64,000 nt of DNA from Oscillospiraceae bacterium. Lineage in GTDB: Bacteria > Bacillota > Clostridia > Oscillospirales > CAG-272. The first letter of the stretch is position 1. Every line of letters starts with the position of its first letter. A program made the position numbers and the translations under genes. Below, piece by piece: positions 55,218-64,000 of the stretch. The stretch is from contig SVUG01000005.1 in assembly GCA_015063385.1 (NCBI GenBank), positions 5,043-69,042 on the forward strand, in the 5' to 3' direction. The notes under the pieces were generated by a model. That model worked only from the letters and a program-made list of their open reading frames with translations, was not told where the DNA came from and searched no databases.

Positions 55218-56078
55218 TTATTTGAATCTTTTTATAGGAAGAAGCATTCTTGTTTCATTTTTATACTCATCAAATCCCGGCTTGGCTGATTGTCTGCCAT
55301 CTGCAAGAGGAATACTGACAAAGAGGAAAAGCAGAGTATTTGCAGCCGCGCCAAGACAAAGAATTACTGCGCTCGAATCTGCAGAAATCACAGAAAGAGC
55401 TATTCCCCACCACATAAGTATCTCGCCGAGATAGTTCGGGTGGCGCGAGTGCTTCCAAAGTCCGCTTCTTATAAACGCGCCGTTTCGGTTCTTACGGAAC
55501 TTATGCATTTGCAGGTCTGCCACCCCCTGCATAATAGTAGCGGCAATAGATAGTAAAATACAAAATACGCTTGCACGCGTGGGTACAACGTCAAAGAGAA
55601 ATACATATGCCGCAGGCAGAACGCAACCCCAGACGACGAGCGTGGGAACCATATGTATACCAACAAAATTGATTATAGGATAAAAAACACCGGTTTTTTT
55701 CTTTAACATCGTATAACGCCAGTCCTGATGTGAAAGATTCGGGAAAGTGTACGCCCAATTAACCGTCAGACGAATTCCCCAGATATATACGACAAAAAGC
55801 AGCATTATGCGCATAGGCGTAAGCGCTTTGCCGACTGCGAGGGCCGTTAGTATTACTATCGGCTGGACGCTCCAATAGGGGTCGTATACCGAGGCGTTTG
55901 AAAAGATAAGGCTGAACGCAAAGGTGATCACGGTAGCCACTATGTCAGCAACGAGCAACCGCAGCCACCATTCAAAAGTAAGCGCATTATAGGTTAAAAC
56001 AGCAGCAACGGTTGCAATAACGTAAATTATCGTTATTATTATGTAGCTAATTGTACGATTTTCTTTAATTCTTCTCAT
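55218..56078 (-). CDS. DUF1295 membrane protein (steroid 5-alpha-reductase/ICMT-like fold)
   Basis: 286 aa, multi-TM. C-terminal RSGLWKHSRHPNYLGEILMWWG block. Confidence 0.8.
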   Translation of the reverse strand: MRRIKENRTISYIIITIIYVIATVAAVLTYNALTFEWWLRLLVADIVATVITFAFSLIFSNASVYDPYWSVQPIVILTALAVGKALTPMRIMLLFVVYIWGIRLTVNWAYTFPNLSHQDWRYTMLKKKTGVFYPIINFVGIHMVPTLVVWGCVLPAAYVFLFDVVPTRASVFCILLSIAATIMQGVADLQMHKFRKNRNGAFIRSGLWKHSRHPNYLGEILMWWGIALSVISADSSAVILCLGAAANTLLFLFVSIPLADGRQSAKPGFDEYKNETRMLLPIKRFK

Positions 56079-56235
56079 TTTCTTTCTTCTTGCTTCAGAG
56101 AATTTATTATAAGCTCTTGCTTTAAGAAATTATAACACCGTTAAGCAAAAATATCAAGTTTTTTGTCGATTTTTATTTAATGAGATTTCCACTCTTATAT
56201 ATTCTGAAAGTCAAAGCATTTTAGAAATTTAACGA

Positions 56236-56264
56236 TTGACATATTTTTCACCTTGTGCTACAAT
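56236..56264 (+). promoter_or_regulatory. sigma-A promoter of malQ
   Basis: TTGACA (56236..56241), 17 nt spacer, TGcTACAAT (extended -10). Confidence 0.65.
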
Positions 56265-56315
56265 GTTATATGTCTGAAAATACACAGTACATTTAATTCC
56301 AAAGCAGGACACGTT

Positions 56316-57827
56316 ATGAACACTTCACTCAAAAATTTTGGCTTCAGGAGAAAAAGCGGTATTCTGATGCCGATAAGCTCGCTTGCCTCTCCTTACGGCA
56401 TAGGCTCGTTTGGCAAGGAGGCTTACGATTTCGTAGATTTTCTCGTTGAAACGGGAACAAAATGCTGGCAGGTTCTGCCGCTTAACCCTACATCGTACGG
56501 TGACAGCCCATATCAGTCACCCGCATCTGTGGCGCTTAATCCGTATTTTATCGATCTCGAAATATTGAGAAAAAAGGGACTGCTCGCAAAAGCGGAGCTT
56601 GCCGTAGCAAAAAATTCTTCAAAAAAGGTTGATTACGGTTGGCTTTTCAACACGAGATATGACATACTCGCTTTGGCACACCGCCGTTTTCTCGAAACAG
56701 ACGGTCATAAGAATGCAGAATATAAGCGCTTTATCAGAAAAAACTCGGCTTGGATAAACGATTATTCCTTGTTTATGGCACTTAAGGTGCATTACGGATA
56801 TTCAAAATGGACCTCCTGGGAAGAAAAGCACAAGGATATAAGCTCTGCCCGTGATTCAAGAGCAGATTTTGCCGATGACTGTGCTTTCTTTGAGTGGATA
56901 CAGTTCGAGGCTTTCACACAGTGGCATGCGCTCGTCGAATATGCGCACGAAAATGGAATTCTTATTATTGGTGATATGCCGATTTACGTCGCGCACGACT
57001 CGATGGACGTTTGGAGTGCTCCGGAGCAATTCTTGCTCGACGGTGAATTCAATCCCACCGTCGTTGCAGGCTGTCCCCCCGACGGATATTCTCCCGACGG
57101 TCAGCTGTGGGGCAACCCTATTTATAACTGGGATTTGATGAGCAAGGACGGCTTTACTTGGTGGAAGAAACGCGTAGGTATGAGCTTCGAGCTCTACGAT
57201 ATCCTCCGCATAGACCATTTCAGAGGATTTGCAGGATATTACAATATTCCATACGGAGAGCCGACCGCCAAGAACGGAAAGTGGGACTCTGCTCCCGGTA
57301 TTGAGCTGTTCCGAGAAGTTAAAGAGGCGTTCCCAAAGGGCAAAATTATTGCCGAGGACCTTGGACATATAACACCCGACGTGCGCGCGCTTCTTGAAAG
57401 CACGGGATTCCCGGGAATGAAAATGCTCCAGTTTGCCTTTTTCGACGACAACAGCGAGTATCTTCCCCGCACCTATGCTACGGAAAACTGCGTATGTTAT
57501 CCCGCAACGCACGATTCGGATTGCATAAGAAGCTGGTGCAAGGGACTTTCGGGTGATACGAGAAAGCGATTCAATAAGGAGTGTCCGCACGTAAAAGGAC
57601 AAAGCAGGACATTCGACCTCATTGAGCTTTCTCTCTCAAGCAAGGCTAATTTAACCGTCGTTCCGATGCAGGACTACCTCGCTCTTACGAACTTTGAGGG
57701 ACGAATGAACACCCCCTCCAAGCCCGACGGCAACTGGACCTGGCGCATAAGCCAGAGATACCGCACGTCAACGCTTATTGAAAAAATCAAAAGCATTACC
57801 ACTCGCACACACCGTGCAACCAAATAA
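56316..57827 (+). CDS. malQ: 4-alpha-glucanotransferase (GH77 amylomaltase)
   Basis: Motifs YGDSPYQSPAS, LRIDHFRGF, IIAEDLG and YPATHDS. Start set at ATG 56316 (MNTSLKNFGFRRKSGILMPISSL); the track ORF starts at 56253. Confidence 0.9.
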   Translation: MNTSLKNFGFRRKSGILMPISSLASPYGIGSFGKEAYDFVDFLVETGTKCWQVLPLNPTSYGDSPYQSPASVALNPYFIDLEILRKKGLLAKAELAVAKNSSKKVDYGWLFNTRYDILALAHRRFLETDGHKNAEYKRFIRKNSAWINDYSLFMALKVHYGYSKWTSWEEKHKDISSARDSRADFADDCAFFEWIQFEAFTQWHALVEYAHENGILIIGDMPIYVAHDSMDVWSAPEQFLLDGEFNPTVVAGCPPDGYSPDGQLWGNPIYNWDLMSKDGFTWWKKRVGMSFELYDILRIDHFRGFAGYYNIPYGEPTAKNGKWDSAPGIELFREVKEAFPKGKIIAEDLGHITPDVRALLESTGFPGMKMLQFAFFDDNSEYLPRTYATENCVCYPATHDSDCIRSWCKGLSGDTRKRFNKECPHVKGQSRTFDLIELSLSSKANLTVVPMQDYLALTNFEGRMNTPSKPDGNWTWRISQRYRTSTLIEKIKSITTRTHRATK

Positions 57828-57919
57828 ATTTTAAGAGTACGTAGTACTCGCTGAATCAGTCACCATCAATTGACGTTATGATTATATAAATCTAATTCTT
57901 TCAAATAATTATGGCAAAG

Positions 57920-57953
57920 GAAAAGAGGCTGTCAAAAGACAGCCTCTTTTTTT
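57920..57953. terminator. bidirectional terminator between malQ and the 121-aa gene
   Basis: AAAAGAGGCTGTC-AAAA-GACAGCCTCTTTTTTT. Confidence 0.8.
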
Positions 57954-57970
57954 GAGAAAACGCGCAAAAA

Positions 57971-58336
57971 TTATTTTGCGCTAAGCTCCATTACGGCGTT
58001 TTCTTCAGTCCATTCAAATGAAATGAAGTTCTTCACCACTAGCTTTGCCATAGCAATTTTAAAATCGAAAGACTTGCGGTCAAAATCCACAACCTTATCA
58101 CCGTCAACGTAGGTAAAGGAAATTTCCTCACCCTCACTAAGCACGCCCTCGGGAATGTTCTCCACGGGGTCCTCTATTGTGGAAAATATAGCGACGTTAT
58201 TCTGACGGCAGATTTCTCTGTCGTTCTTAATATATACGAGATCCACCTTTGCAAAAGCGATGAAGGTCAAGAGCACGAGCACAAGTGCAAGACAGGTGGA
58301 AATGATGCCTGCCGACATAGGTTTTTTGTTTTTCAT
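57971..58336 (-). CDS. hypothetical membrane-anchored small protein
   Basis: 121 aa. AGGAG RBS 8 nt upstream. One N-terminal TM (GIISTCLALVLVLLTFIAFA). Confidence 0.65.
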   Translation of the reverse strand: MKNKKPMSAGIISTCLALVLVLLTFIAFAKVDLVYIKNDREICRQNNVAIFSTIEDPVENIPEGVLSEGEEISFTYVDGDKVVDFDRKSFDFKIAMAKLVVKNFISFEWTEENAVMELSAK

Positions 58337-58505: not shown

Positions 58506-58534
58506 TTGACATTAATTATGTTTTAATATATAAT
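58506..58534 (+). promoter_or_regulatory. consensus sigma-A promoter of pflB with a roughly 190-nt structured leader
   Basis: TTGACA (58506..58511), 17 nt spacer, TATAAT (58529..58534). The leader contains AATTTTCAC-AAG-GTGAAAATT (58629..58649) and CCGTG-GCTT-CACGG. Confidence 0.65.
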
Positions 58535-58729
58535 ATAATAATGCACGCTGCTCGTGTATTTCACCTTTACGGCAAGTACGGACAACCGGGCATAAAATAT
58601 TTTTGCGAGTTGCCGTGGCTTCACGGTTAATTTTCACAAGGTGAAAATTTAAGGCGCGTAGATATAATGTTAACTTTATTGCAAATAATATAAGTAATTG
58701 TATTTGTAGAAAACAGAAAGGCAGAAAAT

Positions 58730-60838
58730 ATGAATTATAAATACGATGGGTGGAAAGGCTTTGAAAGCGGAACCTGGGTTAATGAAATAAACGTACGAAG
58801 CTTCATCCGCCATAACTATACACCTTACGACGGAGATGAATCCTTCCTCTCAGATGCTACCGAAGATACCCTTGCGCTCTGGGAACAGGTAATGGAGCTT
58901 TCCAGACAGGAAAGAGAAAAGGGCGGCGTGCTCGATATGGATACGAGAGTCGTATCTACCATTATCTCTCACGGCCCCGGTTATCTTGACAGAGAGAAGG
59001 AAAAGATAGTCGGCTTCCAAACGGACAAGCCCTTCAAGCGTGCGCTGATGCCATACGGCGGTATCCGTATGGCAGAAAAGGCGTGTGCCGACCACGGCTA
59101 CTCCATTGACCCCGGTGTGAAGGAATTTTTCACTCTTCACAGAAAAACGCACAACGCCGGGGTTTTCGATGCATACACCCCAGAAATGAGAGCCTGCCGT
59201 TCCAGCCATATCATCACCGGACTTCCCGATGCATACGGCAGAGGCAGAATTATAGGCGACTACAGACGAGTTGCACTTTACGGAGTCGACCGCCTTATCG
59301 CTGACAAGGAGGAACAGAAGCGCACTACTCGCTCGGCTATGTACTCTGACGTTATTCGTGACAGAGAGGAGCTCTCCGAGCAGATAAGAGCGCTCGGCGA
59401 CCTCAAGACTATGGCGCTCAGCTACGGATATGATATTTCCGAGCCCGCACGCGACACGAAGGAAGCTATTCAGTGGCTTTACTTCGGTTATCTTGCAGCG
59501 GTTAAGGAGCAGAACGGTGCGGCAATGTCGCTCGGCAGAACCTCGACGTTCCTCGATATATATGCAGAGAGGGATATCAAAAACGGTGTTTACACCGAAA
59601 GGGAAATTCAGGAGCTGGTTGACCAGTTTATCATGAAGCTGCGCCTTATAAAATTTGCAAGAACCCCTGAATATAACGCGCTCTTCTCGGGCGATCCGCA
59701 GTGGGTGACGGAGTCCATCGGCGGTGTCGCTATCGACGGTCGACACATGGTCACCAAGATGTCCTACAGATACCTTCACACGCTCACAAATCTTGGTCCT
59801 GCACCCGAGCCCAACCTCACGGTGCTTTGGTCAACGAGACTTCCTGCAGCGTTCAAGAGATACTGCGCGAAAATGTCTATTGAAACCTCGTCTATACAGT
59901 ATGAAAACGACGATTTGATGCGCTTTACCCACGGTGACGATTACGCTATCGCCTGTTGCGTATCATCTATGAGAATCGGCAAGGAGATGCAGTTCTTCGG
60001 TGCAAGAGCCAATCTTGCAAAATGTCTGCTGTACGCTATCAACGGCGGTATTGACGAGATAACGGGTAAGCAGGTTGGTCCTGAGTATCGCCCGATAACC
60101 TCTGAATATCTTGATTACGACGAGGTTATGTCTAAATACGACGCTATGATGGAATGGCTTGCAGGCGTTTACGTCAATACGCTGAACATCATTCACTATA
60201 TGCACGATAAATATTGCTATGAGAAGATTCAGATGGCGCTTCACGACAAGGACGTCACTCGCTGGTTCGCCACGGGAATCGCAGGACTTTCGGTCGTAGC
60301 CGACTCGCTTTCAGCCATTAAATACGCGCGCGTTAAGGTAATCAGAAACGAGGCAGGCATCGCAACCGACTACGAGGTTGAGGGCGATTTCCCCAAATAC
60401 GGCAACGACGACGACCGAGTAGACAGTATCGCGTACGACATCGTGCACAGATTTATGGAGCACATTCGTAAAAATCACACCTATAGAGGCGGAATTCATA
60501 CTACCTCTATTCTGACAATTACCTCAAACGTCGTTTACGGCAAGGCAACCGGTGCAACCCCCGACGGCCGTAAGAGAGGCGAGGCGTTTGCCCCGGGTGC
60601 AAACCCCATGCACCGCCGTGACACCCACGGTGCAGTTGCATCTCTGGCATCGGTAGCCAAGCTTCCCTTCAAGGATTCACAGGACGGCATTTCCAACACC
60701 TTCTCGATTATCCCCGGTGCACTCGGAAAGGACGACCGTATTTTCGCAGGTGATATTGGAATTGACATAGATTGCGCAGATGGTGCTTGCGCCATTCCCA
60801 CTCTCTTTGAGGGCCTTGACGCAGACGGAGAGGTGTAA
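58730..60838 (+). CDS. pflB: pyruvate formate-lyase, catalytic body lacking the glycyl-radical domain
   Basis: 702 aa. Motifs [25 protein letters not shown], catalytic IACCVS, and [24 protein letters not shown]. It then runs into an unrelated 33-aa acidic tail and stops. Confidence 0.9.
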
Positions 60839-60860
60839 AATCTCGCCGAAATCAAGTATT

Positions 60861-60880
60861 TTGCAAACCAAAGTTTGCAA
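60861..60880 (+). other. perfect hairpin in the spacer between the two pfl pieces
   Basis: TTGCAAAC-CAAA-GTTTGCAA. No U-run follows. GAAAGGA RBS and ATG 60911 lie downstream. Confidence 0.6.
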
Positions 60881-60910
60881 TAACAGCAAAAAAACGAAAG
60901 GAACAATAAT

Positions 60911-61153
60911 ATGGCAGCAACAAAGGACCAGATAGATAATCTCGTTGCACTCCTTGACGGATACGTAGAAAAGGGTGGACATCACCTCAACGTAAACGTG
61001 TTTTCAAAGGAAACGCTTCTTGACGCACAAAAGCATCCCGAGAGATATCCTCAGCTCACAGTACGCGTCAGCGGATACGCCGTGAACTTTGTAAAGCTCA
61101 CAAAGGAGCAGCAGGACGAGGTTATTTCCCGTACCTTCCACGACAAAATATAA
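60911..61153 (+). CDS. stand-alone glycyl-radical domain (C-terminal part of PFL; GrcA/YfiD-like)
   Basis: 80 aa. [21 protein letters not shown]...[32 protein letters not shown] contains the RVSGYAV glycine-radical fingerprint. Confidence 0.9.
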
Positions 61154-61159
61154 TTCTTT

Positions 61160-61195
61160 GCAGGAAAGCCTTCGGACTTTCCTGCTTTGTTTTTC
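61160..61195 (+). terminator. rho-independent terminator after the glycyl-radical domain ORF
   Basis: GCAGGAAAG-8 nt loop-CTTTCCTGC followed by TTTGTTTTT. Confidence 0.8.
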
Positions 61196-61211: not shown

Positions 61212-61240
61212 TTGAATAAATAAGTATTTTGTGATATAAT
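61212..61240 (+). promoter_or_regulatory. sigma-A promoter of the 312-aa gene/pflA operon
   Basis: TTGAAT (61212..61217), 17 nt spacer, TGaTATAAT (extended -10, 61232..61240). Confidence 0.6.
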
Positions 61241-61269: not shown

Positions 61270-62208
61270 ATGAAACAGATTATACAAAAAATTTTAACTG
61301 TGTTTGGCATAATCATTGCCGTGCTTGTTATTTTTTTGCTAGCACTGAACGTTGCAAAATTCGCAATATATTCAGAATATTATTCCATTGAAAAGCGAGT
61401 CTGCACGAATCCCGGACTTTTCGACGGATTTGTTTGTCAGGGGATTGCCGTTTCGGAAGAAAATGAAGCAATTTTAGTTTCCGGATATATGAATGACGGC
61501 AGCAACAGTCGAATTTACGTCACCGATTTTCAAAGTAATTCCTATTACGTTGAGCTTACAAGGCTGGGCGAGGACTACAAGGGTCACGCAGGCGGAATTG
61601 CAATTTATGACGATATCGTTTATATTTCAAATGCAGGCAAGCTTCTGCTGCTCTCACTCTCTGACGTTCTTGACGCAAAGAACGGCGACACCGTTAATAT
61701 CAGTAGCGAAATTAAGGTAAATTCTGCTGCATCGTTTGTATTTGCCAACGACGAGTTTGTTTTCGTCGGGGAATTCAATGACCCCAATGCCAAGCAAAAG
61801 CAGCACGTATATGACACGCCGACCGGCACCAATCACGCCATAATTGAGGTTTACAGACATACAGACCTTGATAATCCCGTGAAAATATATTCAATTAGCG
61901 ACTATGTGCAGGGTGTGTGCTTCACTCCTAGCGGCAAAATCGTTCTTTCCACCTCTCACGGTGCGACGAGCTCAGTTTTTTACATATATGATGAACACGA
62001 AGCATTTGATTCAGGTAATACTCTTGACGGAGCACCCATTTATTATCTCGGGCAATGTCAGAGAAAAGTATTAGGACCTGCAATGAGCGAGGATTTGGAT
62101 TGGTTTAACGGCAGAGTCGTGACGCTTTTCGAAAGCGCATCGGACAAATATATTTTCGGCAGATTTTTCTTCGCTTTTGATATAGTAGGTCTTGATTTGG
62201 AGAATTAA
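61270..62208 (+). CDS. hypothetical membrane-anchored protein with an extracytoplasmic beta-rich domain
   Basis: 312 aa. GGAGAA RBS. N-terminal TM (ILTVFGIIIAVLVIFLLAL). No family recognised. Its stop lies 2 nt before the pflA ATG. Confidence 0.75.
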   Translation: MKQIIQKILTVFGIIIAVLVIFLLALNVAKFAIYSEYYSIEKRVCTNPGLFDGFVCQGIAVSEENEAILVSGYMNDGSNSRIYVTDFQSNSYYVELTRLGEDYKGHAGGIAIYDDIVYISNAGKLLLLSLSDVLDAKNGDTVNISSEIKVNSAASFVFANDEFVFVGEFNDPNAKQKQHVYDTPTGTNHAIIEVYRHTDLDNPVKIYSISDYVQGVCFTPSGKIVLSTSHGATSSVFYIYDEHEAFDSGNTLDGAPIYYLGQCQRKVLGPAMSEDLDWFNGRVVTLFESASDKYIFGRFFFAFDIVGLDLEN

Positions 62209-62210
62209 TT

Positions 62211-62969
62211 ATGAAGGGATATATACATTCAAGCGAATCGTTCGGAACTCTTGACGGCCCCGGCATCAGATACGTGCTGTTCATGCAGGGCTGTCCCATG
62301 CGCTGCCTTTACTGCCACAACCCTGACACCTGGCAGACCGATACGGGTACCGAAATTGAGGCGCAGGACGTAATTAAGCAATTTAATAAGAACCGCAGCT
62401 TTTATTCTAACGGTGGTATCACCGTAAGCGGAGGCGAGCCTCTTTTGCAGATAGATTTTTTGACCGAGCTCTTTGAGCTGGCAAAAAAAGACGGAATACA
62501 CACCGCTATTGATACCTCGGGTATAACCTTTTCTGGCGCGGATAATGCGTACCGCAAGAAGCTTGACAAGCTTATGGAATATACCGACCTGGTTATGCTT
62601 GATATAAAGCATATTGACACCGAAAAGCACCGTGCCCTGACCGCGCACGGCAACTCGAATATTCTCGCGTTTGCAAAATATCTTGAAGAAAAAGGTATTC
62701 CTCTTTGGGTGCGCCACGTGCTCGTCGAGGGATACACGGATAATGACGCAGACCTTTTTGCTTTAGGAAAATTTATCGGCGGACTTAAAAACCTGAAGGC
62801 ACTTGACGTGCTTCCCTATCACACTATGGGGGCCGCAAAATACAAAGAGCTTGGTATTCCTTACGCCCTGGAGGGTGTGAAGCCTACGAGCAACGAACAA
62901 GCAAGACTCGCCAGAGAAATCATTCTTTCTGGCATTCGCGCAGTAAGACAAAAAAAGACTGAATCTTGA
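62211..62969 (+). CDS. pflA: pyruvate formate-lyase activating enzyme (radical SAM)
   Basis: 252 aa. Motifs GPGIRYVLFMQGCPMRCLYCHNPDTW (CxxxCxxC) and GGITVSGGEPL. Confidence 0.9.
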   Translation: MKGYIHSSESFGTLDGPGIRYVLFMQGCPMRCLYCHNPDTWQTDTGTEIEAQDVIKQFNKNRSFYSNGGITVSGGEPLLQIDFLTELFELAKKDGIHTAIDTSGITFSGADNAYRKKLDKLMEYTDLVMLDIKHIDTEKHRALTAHGNSNILAFAKYLEEKGIPLWVRHVLVEGYTDNDADLFALGKFIGGLKNLKALDVLPYHTMGAAKYKELGIPYALEGVKPTSNEQARLAREIILSGIRAVRQKKTES

Positions 62970-62985
62970 CGATTCAGTCTTTTTT
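62951..62985. terminator. bidirectional terminator containing both convergent stop codons
   Basis: AAAAAAGACTGAATC-TTGAC-GATTCAGTCTTTTTT. The pflA TGA (62967..62969) sits in the loop. The NUDIX stop (62974..62976) lies in the 3' arm. Confidence 0.75.
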
Positions 62986-63477
62986 ATTTGCAAATATTTT
63001 ATTCTTGTAAATGAGGTATCTTCGAAGCGTGCCGCGAGTTAACTCCTCCTTCATTCCGTTAAGCTCGGACTCACTCACGAGCCTATATCCAATCACCTCG
63101 GTTGGCTGAAGAGTGATAGACGGCAACTCATTAATCTCCACGAGATAGGAAACGGCATAAACGTTTCCGTTTGTCATTCTGCCTATTTCCAAAAGCTCAT
63201 TAGACTCCACCAAAATACCGACTTCCTCCGACAGCTCACGCAGTGCACCTGTTAACACGTCCTCGCCTGATACAACCGCACCTCCCGGAACGTCGTATTT
63301 AAGCCCCTCGCTCTTATCGGGGTGACGCTGCGTAATAAGCAGCCTATCGCCTATTCTCACCCAAACCTCAACACAAGGATGATACATTCCCTCGGGTATA
63401 TTTTTGTGATTTTTTCGCTCCCATGTTATACCCAGAAGCTCTCCGTTTTCATTAACAATGTCCCAAATTTCAGTCAT
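62974..63477 (-). CDS. NUDIX hydrolase
   Basis: 167 aa. Nudix box GGAVVSGEDVLTGALRELSEEVGI. Confidence 0.85.
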   Translation of the reverse strand: MTEIWDIVNENGELLGITWERKNHKNIPEGMYHPCVEVWVRIGDRLLITQRHPDKSEGLKYDVPGGAVVSGEDVLTGALRELSEEVGILVESNELLEIGRMTNGNVYAVSYLVEINELPSITLQPTEVIGYRLVSESELNGMKEELTRGTLRRYLIYKNKIFANKKD

Positions 63478-63508
63478 TTTTCACCTATTTGACAAGTAAT
63501 ATTTACAT

Positions 63509-64000
63509 TTATTCATTTTTAAGATGCACGTCAAGCCGATTGTATGGAATTGTAATTCCACTTTCGTCAAACTTTTGCTTTACACTTTCCATCACGTCAA
63601 AATGCGTGTTCCAATAGTCAGCGCCATTAACCCATACTCTTGCAGCAATTCTAACTCCGCTTTCGCCGTGCTCTGCAACTCTGACCATCGGGGCGGGCTC
63701 GGAAAGCGCTGACGGATGAGATGTGAGTATATTCAACACGACGGATTTTGCCTCTTCAAAATCGTCATTGTAGGAAATCATAAAATTAAAATCAACCCTT
63801 CTTATATCCTTTTCGGAATAGTTGATTATATTTCCATTAGATAACGCGCCGTTGGGAAGATAAACCACCTTGTTATCAGGAGTTCTCAACTTGGTACACA
63901 CCATGTGAATATCCTCAACCGTGCCCGATTCCCCCTGTGCCTCTATATAATCATCAATTTTGAACGGCCTTGTGACAAGAATCAGCACTCCGCCGGCAAG
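63509..64000 (-). CDS. mechanosensitive ion channel (MscS family), 5' end beyond window
   Basis: LILVTRPFKIDDYIEAQGESGTVEDIHMVCTKLRTPDNKVVYLPNGALSNGNIINYS is the conserved MscS beta-domain. The frame stays open to position 64000. Confidence 0.85.
   Translation of the reverse strand, partial: LAGGVLILVTRPFKIDDYIEAQGESGTVEDIHMVCTKLRTPDNKVVYLPNGALSNGNIINYSEKDIRRVDFNFMISYNDDFEEAKSVVLNILTSHPSALSEPAPMVRVAEHGESGVRIAARVWVNGADYWNTHFDVMESVKQKFDESGITIPYNRLDVHLKNE

Follow-up and report, generated by a model that had tools for sequence, protein, structure and literature searches.

A conserved, naturally split pyruvate formate-lyase with a separately encoded glycyl radical domain in gut Clostridia

[quoted passage not shown] Here, we describe a PFL locus of an Oscillospiraceae bacterium (contig SVUG01000005.1), located in a stretch of 64,000 nucleotides (nt) that we refer to as the window. 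The locus consists of a long open reading frame (ORF) for a PFL body that has no radical glycine, a short ORF for an 80-amino-acid (aa) glycyl radical protein of the GrcA3 family and, nearby, a gene for the PFL-activating enzyme PflA. Comparison with related genomes shows that this is a conserved, naturally split PFL, which is neither a fresh pseudogene nor an artefact.

Genes and features of the split locus

The two ORFs, the sequence between them and the activase gene carry the following features:

58730..60838, + strand: PFL body (putative alpha subunit), 702 aa, with its PFL-homologous core at residues 1-669 (58730..60736)
59954..59959, + strand: catalytic Cys409-Cys410 (ACCVS, in IACCVSS at residues 407-413), equivalent to Cys418/Cys419 of Escherichia coli PFL
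60737..60835, + strand: conserved 33-aa acidic tail of the body, defined by motif conservation, pN/pS and homology to a 'middle' protein of related loci
60773..60820, + strand: Cys motif of the tail, C682...C687...PTLFEGLD, read from the sequence
60839..60910, + strand: non-coding spacer of 72 nt with two in-frame stops, read from the sequence
60861..60880, + strand: perfect 8-bp hairpin TTGCAAAC/CAAA/GTTTGCAA, read from the sequence
60896..60902, + strand: ribosome-binding site (RBS) GAAAGGA, 8 nt 5′ of the ATG at 60911, read from the sequence
60911..61153, + strand: GrcA3-type radical protein (putative beta subunit), 80 aa, matching NF038360 and TIGR01255 and having a separate RBS, ATG and stop
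61073..61075, + strand: radical Gly55 in the sequence motif RVSGYAV
62211..62969, + strand: PflA, radical S-adenosylmethionine PFL-activating enzyme, 252 aa (TIGR02493, 306.9 bits against a cutoff of 231.75)

The body follows PFL up to ...ALGKDD, then runs into the acidic tail and stops. It aligns to residues 9-681 of E. coli PFL and contains the Pfam PFL-like domain at its residues 18-604. Its match to TIGR01255 (the PFL equivalog model) covers model positions 2-664 of 744 with 1097.2 bits, passing the cutoff of 994.2 alone, even without the C-terminal end of the model. The catalytic ACCVS is kept in all 75 assessable related bodies, while the radical glycine motif RVSGYAV has no counterpart on the body chain, which stops at model position 664. 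A Foldseek search with a low-confidence structural model of the body (mean predicted local distance difference test (pLDDT) score of 46.5) returned E. coli PFL along with other glycyl radical enzymes and nothing else. No other PFL was found among the proteins of the 64-kb window.

The small ORF supplies the part of PFL that is missing from the body. It matches TIGR01255 at positions 664-744 and aligns to E. coli PFL residues 683-756, which makes the two ORFs exactly complementary on the PFL model, with no gap and no overlap. It belongs to the curated NCBIfam family NF038360 ('autonomous glycyl radical cofactor GrcA3'; 166.3 bits, cutoff 158), with its residues 4-80 covering model positions 2-78 of 78. 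It passes neither the GrcA/YfiD model TIGR04365 (91.6 bits, cutoff 170; residues 21-79 matching model positions 67-125 only) nor the GrcA2 model NF008341 (104.7 bits, cutoff 145), and it has no disordered N-terminal half of the kind typical of GrcA. The family of this protein is thus already named, and some database homologues are so annotated by NCBI; in the literature searched, we found no paper using the name GrcA3, no experiment on any GrcA3 and no paper describing a partner body without a radical domain of its own. All 81 small ORFs retain both RVSGYAV and GGHHLNVNV, and 79 of them are 77-83 aa long. The second of these motifs contains His24-His25 (60977..60982), where E. coli PFL has GGQH; that the extra histidine of GrcA3 might relate to the two-Cys motif of the tail, e.g. 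in a shared metal site, is pure speculation.

All that the initial annotation had read from the sequence of this locus was confirmed: the body ORF with ACCVS, divergent 33-aa tail and stop, the 72-nt spacer with its perfect hairpin and GAAAGGA RBS, and an intact pflA nearby. Its statement that the 80-aa product is the complete glycyl radical domain depends on the definition used. By structure (β-strand, Gly loop and C-terminal helix), the radical domain is complete on the small ORF, but the Pfam Gly_radical model is cut in half: the body holds its positions 1-50 and the small ORF its positions 49-106.

The two ORFs share a frame in the window, 24 codons apart. Among strains of the same species, spacers are identical except for a homopolymer length polymorphism (A7 or A6) at 60885..60891, seen in L082, L085 and L087, and a few point changes in L085. 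As this difference (a spacer of 72 or 71 nt) shifts the relative frame, there is no dependence on frame. The hairpin was considered as a regulatory element and rejected on account of its folding z-score of -0.72 and its lack of conservation between species: 45 of 200 shuffled sequences fold equally well, the hairpin has no T-tract, and the spacers of other species are unrelated and 3-120 nt long.

Conservation of the split across species

To place the locus among its relatives, one genome per species was scanned, giving at least 594 stretches confirmed by tblastn, of which the best 80 were analysed (L001-L080). Both parts lie on the contig in 78 of these best 80 loci, and PFL is split in 77 of the 78: a stop codon ends the body at the same position, and the small ORF comes with a separate ATG and an AGGAGG-type RBS. 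The gaps between the ORFs range from -17 to +120 nt, or are longer when a third ORF is present, and all three relative frames are seen. At the protein level, all 120 of the closest body homologues in the protein database are truncated with a tail (697-721 aa). Two longer bodies, P0250 (805 aa) and P0281 (821 aa), were examined as possible fusions and rejected, since their extra length consists of internal tandem duplications of about 100 residues; these duplications are most likely assembly artefacts, and both bodies are still truncated at the split point.

Within the species, the same locus is present in at least eight independent assemblies, and the gene order (body, 702 aa where complete; spacer; 80-aa, 312-aa and 252-aa ORFs) is the same in all eight places compared, which come from JGI, ENA and NCBI assemblies. 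The exact 80-aa protein occurs on 23 of the contigs examined. Across lineages, identity amounts to 80-95% for the small chain, 70-88% for the body and 50-70% for PflA. Cultured hosts include Ruminococcus sp. YE71, Sellimonas caecigallum, Beduini massiliensis and Lacrimispora amygdalina, and many further hosts are metagenome-assembled genomes from rumen and gut, labelled Acutalibacteraceae, Oscillospiraceae and Lachnospiraceae. The pflA gene follows grcA3 on its 3′ side within -4 to +100 nt in about 62 of 70 related loci.

These comparisons, together with the purifying selection that acts on both pieces and on the tail, bear out the proposal of the initial annotation that PFL is here a two-piece gene. 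Of the elements it had singled out for comparison between relatives, the split, the RBS of the small ORF and the tail are conserved, whereas the spacer varies from species to species.

The acidic tail, three-piece loci and locus surroundings

The tail of the body is a conserved module under purifying selection, which was not recognized in the first reading of the locus. Its consensus, xIFxGD[IL]x[VI][DE][LIF]DCxxGACxxPTLF[ED]GLD followed by acidic residues, holds across 87 distinct tails and 36 gap-free species loci, and C682, C687, G674, L692 and D697 are invariant across 53 bodies. An alternating hydrophobic and acidic stretch (DIGIDID) comes first and a two-Cys loop stands at the end. In the 36 gap-free species loci, the nonsynonymous difference (pN) of the tail is 0.154 versus a synonymous difference (pS) of 0.809, a ratio of 0.19, compared with a ratio of 0.115 for the 156 body codons before the tail; since synonymous sites are saturated, both ratios are upper bounds. 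The low ratio indicates that the tail is translated and constrained. No known domain was found in it by Pfam, NCBIfam and PDB profile searches. Other tail variants (L057, L059, L062, L070, L080; L053, L055; L017, L042) have the forms ...FELEPDCACCEPN..., ...GCEDGNTACLQPNE... and ...DGCIDCG..., in which at least two cysteines and an acidic end recur and the PTLFEGLD part does not.

In 16 of the loci (L036, L039, L048, L049, L051, L058, L060, L061, L065, L067-L069, L074-L076 and L079), the apparent spacer is 210-450 nt long because a third ORF of 55-110 aa sits between the body and grcA3. An example of this middle protein is that of L079 (5704..5940), MADPNEKQIDDIVSMLDSFMANNGGHMNIRVAEDGTVNAHKTNAKTITTANSLDCAEGDTACRVPTLFEGMDREEEDL. 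Its N-terminal half resembles the start of GrcA3, weakly matching positions 2-33 of the GrcA3 model (E 3e-5 to 1e-3), and its C-terminal half contains the same Cys motif as the window tail; a profile alignment (hhalign) of the tails with the middle proteins gives a probability of 97% and an E value of 8.6e-11. In these three-piece loci, the body tail is short and Cys-less (xVFxGDLDVxxxx). Apart from the weak GrcA3 match, Pfam and NCBIfam assign the middle protein to no family, and its annotation reads 'hypothetical'. Its own family comprises 264 clusters at 50% identity (E <= 1e-3), 114 of them with E <= 1e-10, and the members are almost all stand-alone proteins of 54-129 aa. As judged from these gene arrangements, sister lineages have a putative three-piece PFL with an unannotated small protein, an arrangement absent from the first reading of the locus.

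Clustering of the bodies places the two-piece, Cys-tailed type (including that of the window) in one group and the three-piece type in several deeper groups. Nested inside the two-piece group is L063 (5700..6225), where PFL is contiguous and a 10-aa remnant of the tail, QGFLGEPEID, serves as a linker. As the remnant is retained, the contiguous form of L063 is a secondary re-fusion, and such a natural re-fusion indicates that the pieces fit the normal PFL fold. From these patterns, we infer that a partial duplicate of the radical domain may have arisen between the body and the radical domain, that the three-piece form would be the older one, and that the window form would stem from a deletion joining a short body tail to the Cys-motif end of a middle protein. 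The extra sequence in the window thus looks like the remnant of a partial radical-domain duplication and not like a random insert. The insertion of roughly 177 nt that the initial annotation had invoked is too simple an account, as the tail is conserved as a module and is homologous to the C-terminal end of a small protein that sister lineages encode separately.

The remaining features around the locus are as follows:

58506..58534, + strand: promoter-like site with a 12/12 consensus match, second such site 5′ of the body gene (consensus scan only)
58641..58668, + strand: promoter-like site GTGAAA-16-TATAAT 5′ of the body gene (consensus scan only)
61160..61195, + strand: intrinsic-terminator-like hairpin (9 bp, 5 GC) with T-tract after grcA3 (computed)
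61212..61240, + strand: promoter-like TTGAAT-17-TATAAT with TG, ahead of orf312-pflA (consensus match only)
61270..62208, + strand: 312-aa ORF (orf312) between grcA3 and pflA, with a hydrophobic N-terminus and no Pfam or NCBIfam match

The orf312 gene is present in eight of eight contigs of the same species and in none of the 80 loci of other species (L001-L080); it is a species-specific insertion and probably not part of the enzyme. The neighbouring genes (55218..58336 and 62974..63988) encode a DUF1295 membrane protein (- strand) and a 4-alpha-glucanotransferase (56253..57827, + strand) on one side, and a NUDIX hydrolase (62974..63477, - strand) and an MscS-type channel (- strand) on the other. 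No formate channel gene focA adjoins pflB in the window. Two related loci, L013 (7930..10436) and L037 (9959..12240), contain, 1-4 kb downstream of the split PFL locus, a second glycyl radical enzyme of the PFL2 type (24-35% identity), which is accompanied by an activase of its own.

Interpretation and comparison with known systems

We consider it probable that the locus encodes an obligate heteromeric (two-subunit) PFL that is activated by the nearby PflA, an interpretation built on gene content and conservation. The 702-aa alpha chain would supply the ten-stranded barrel and Cys409/Cys410 but no radical glycine, and the 80-aa beta chain would supply what stands at the C-terminus of an ordinary PFL, namely a helix, the final strand of the barrel, the finger loop with Gly55 and the C-terminal helix. 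The two chains are predicted to be co-transcribed and separately translated, the beta chain from its own RBS and ATG, and to assemble non-covalently into a PFL-like fold. PflA would then place the radical on Gly55, after which catalysis would proceed as in E. coli PFL, with the radical passing from Gly to Cys to pyruvate. The acidic Cys-motif tail may hold or regulate the small chain. It is assumed to offset the weak binding seen in artificially truncated E. coli PFL, in that the recognition which experiments in E. coli show to be needed would come from the tail, or from the middle protein and the duplicate strand it contains. A possible benefit of such an arrangement is that oxygen cleavage would cost only the 80-aa chain, which would be cheap to replace compared with the whole enzyme; such replacement of the small subunit after damage by oxygen is plausible.

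Several observations weigh against this two-subunit interpretation. Both products are predicted from their genes, and the term 'obligate' rests on a body that lacks the glycine yet is conserved, with a check for a second PFL that spans the 64-kb window only. The short name of the NCBIfam family, rad_fix_GrcA3, implies that its curators view the small protein as a repair part. In E. coli, truncation of PFL before residue 696 and loss of the YfiD N-terminus each weaken binding and activation (PMC8683613), from which it follows that a bare body and an 80-aa chain should bind poorly unless the tail compensates. AlphaFold2 models of the body with its tail (from 53 homologues of 86-94% identity; mean pLDDT 46.5) are too low in confidence to place the tail, and for the middle protein (pLDDT 58.1) only an N-terminal helix is predicted.

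As to what the Cys-motif element does, one idea that we hold only tentatively, and regard as rather doubtful, is that the tail, or the separate middle protein of ~75 aa with an N-terminal half that copies the radical domain's helix and strand, acts as a non-radical stand-in for the radical domain. It might plug or guard the empty socket of the body and govern how the radical chain docks and is exchanged, and its two invariant cysteines could perhaps sense redox state or bind a metal. If so, a two- or three-component PFL with built-in management of oxygen damage would be widespread in strictly anaerobic gut Clostridia.

The strongest competitor of the two-subunit enzyme, although an unlikely one, is that GrcA3 is a spare part only, repairing a full-length PFL encoded elsewhere, while the truncated body is inactive or has another role. 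The curated name 'autonomous glycyl radical cofactor GrcA3' speaks for it, as does the possibility of a contiguous paralogue outside the 64-kb window, although the window itself contains no other PFL. A mere spare part is hard to reconcile with 77 of 78 loci in which GrcA3 comes directly after a truncated body, in most cases followed by pflA, and with a body that keeps its catalytic Cys pair under strong purifying selection. Moreover, body and small ORF are exactly complementary, and a re-fused contiguous form arose inside the clade.

It is also improbable that the split is functional while the tail is a neutral leftover without a role. Such a view would fit the absence of a known domain match, the short Cys-less tails of some lineages and the loss of most of the tail in L063. 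It is at odds with the pN/pS of 0.19 and the five residues that are invariant across 53 bodies, and where the tail has no cysteines, the motif is found instead on a separate protein, whose family is diverse (264 clusters at 50% identity).

Recoding, in which read-through, frameshifting or protein trans-splicing would rejoin the ORFs into one chain, might be suggested by their common frame in the window, 24 codons apart, but we regard it as very unlikely. The spacer contains two in-frame stops, relatives use all three frames with gaps of -17 to 120 nt, spacers differ by 1 nt within the species, and every small ORF has its own RBS and ATG. Judged by their sequences and by general knowledge of inteins, the 33-aa tail and the 4-aa leader fall far below the length of split-intein halves, whose terminal motifs they do not have.

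Finally, recent inactivation of a contiguous pflB (the alternative named by the initial annotation) or a sequencing or assembly error, which a single locus with a stop codon amid a well-known enzyme could suggest, is practically ruled out by the same structure in at least eight independent assemblies and 77 of 78 species loci, by a tail protein that is conserved though synonymous sites are saturated, and by a small ORF with a curated family of its own.

If the two-subunit interpretation is right, the locus changes the role usually given to small glycyl radical proteins. The field views YfiD/GrcA as emergency spare parts for a PFL with a radical of its own, whereas here a large clade of rumen and gut Clostridia appears to make the 'spare part' the sole radical-bearing piece, and adds a Cys-motif tail or a third small protein that is described in no database. 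The arrangement bears on annotation as well: split bodies are simply called 'formate C-acetyltransferase', and the third protein is listed as 'hypothetical'. Should the pieces assemble as proposed, they would form a natural system that allows one to add, remove and exchange the radical domain, giving access to the flipping-out of the domain for activation, to its docking and to the cellular handling of oxygen damage. No paper describing a natural split PFL was found in the literature searched, and a June 2026 review of glycyl radical enzymes covers YfiD-type spare parts only, with no natural split (PMC13450708).

The closest solved relatives of the body are two PDB entries of 2026 named 'Formate acetyltransferase', 38LA (687 aa) and 38LB (739 aa), both of them bodies of this clade without a radical domain. 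They score 1114 and 1149 bits against the body, compared with 967 for E. coli PFL, and are 72-80% identical to split bodies in the analysed loci. Chain 38la_A ends ...SLGKED, exactly at the split point. Both come from different species than the window, and the tail of 38LB is not matched by the Cys-motif profile. We found no GrcA3-like chain from these entries and no linked paper; as they are absent from a PDB copy ending 2026-04-08, they are very recent, and someone is probably studying these proteins.

Among characterized enzymes, E. coli PflB (PDB 1H16, 2PFL) is similar in sequence (~59-60% identity over residues 9-681), in its Cys-Cys pair and RVSGYAV loop, and in its type of activase, which is here encoded nearby. 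In contrast to the single 760-aa chain of PflB, the window enzyme is cut at about E. coli residue 681/683, the body adds the 33-aa acidic Cys-motif tail, and the small chain adds a 4-aa leader. GrcA/YfiD (PDB 6OWR; TIGR04365) and Y06I of phage T4 are, like GrcA3, free-standing small proteins with the PFL radical loop. PflA can activate such 'spare part' proteins, and they can complete a PFL whose own radical loop is missing (PMC8683613, PMC13450708). The initial annotation had equated the boundary of the small ORF with that of GrcA, which holds only roughly: E. coli GrcA has 127 aa, including a disordered N-terminus of 60 aa that is important for activation and that the window protein lacks, and GrcA residues 68-125 alone align, to residues 21-78 of the small ORF. 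In addition, E. coli GrcA is not linked to pflB, and the PFL it serves normally carries a radical domain itself, whereas the window GrcA3 sits behind a body that never has one. The small ORF is a member of the GrcA3 family NF038360, although that family name covers the small protein only.

The engineered E. coli pair of a truncated PFL (tPFL) and YfiD is similar in principle, as a body without radical domain is combined with a separate one. Once activated, tPFL(1-695) with YfiD matches the wild type in activity, but the two bind too weakly for measurement (PMC8683613). Activation of tPFL(1-695) with YfiD or truncYfiD(61-127) is poor in the work of Andorfer et al. 2021, and efficient binding and activation need residues 696-733 of oxygen-cleaved PFL (a duplicate β-strand) as well as the disordered YfiD N-terminus (PMC8683613). 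The natural cut differs from the engineered one in lying about 15 residues earlier, so that the small chain keeps the preceding helix, and the conserved tail or third protein may supply the affinity that is absent from the engineered pair.

Small accessory polypeptides are also found in other glycyl radical enzymes. In benzylsuccinate synthase and 4-hydroxyphenylacetate decarboxylase, the radical glycine is on the large subunit, and the small subunits have Fe-S clusters and at least four cysteines. The alpha/beta/gamma composition of the former and the small subunit of the latter resemble the split PFL in having small extra polypeptides, some of them Cys-rich (PMC13450708). The split PFL is set apart from these multi-subunit enzymes by a glycine that lies on the small chain and by an accessory motif with two cysteines only.

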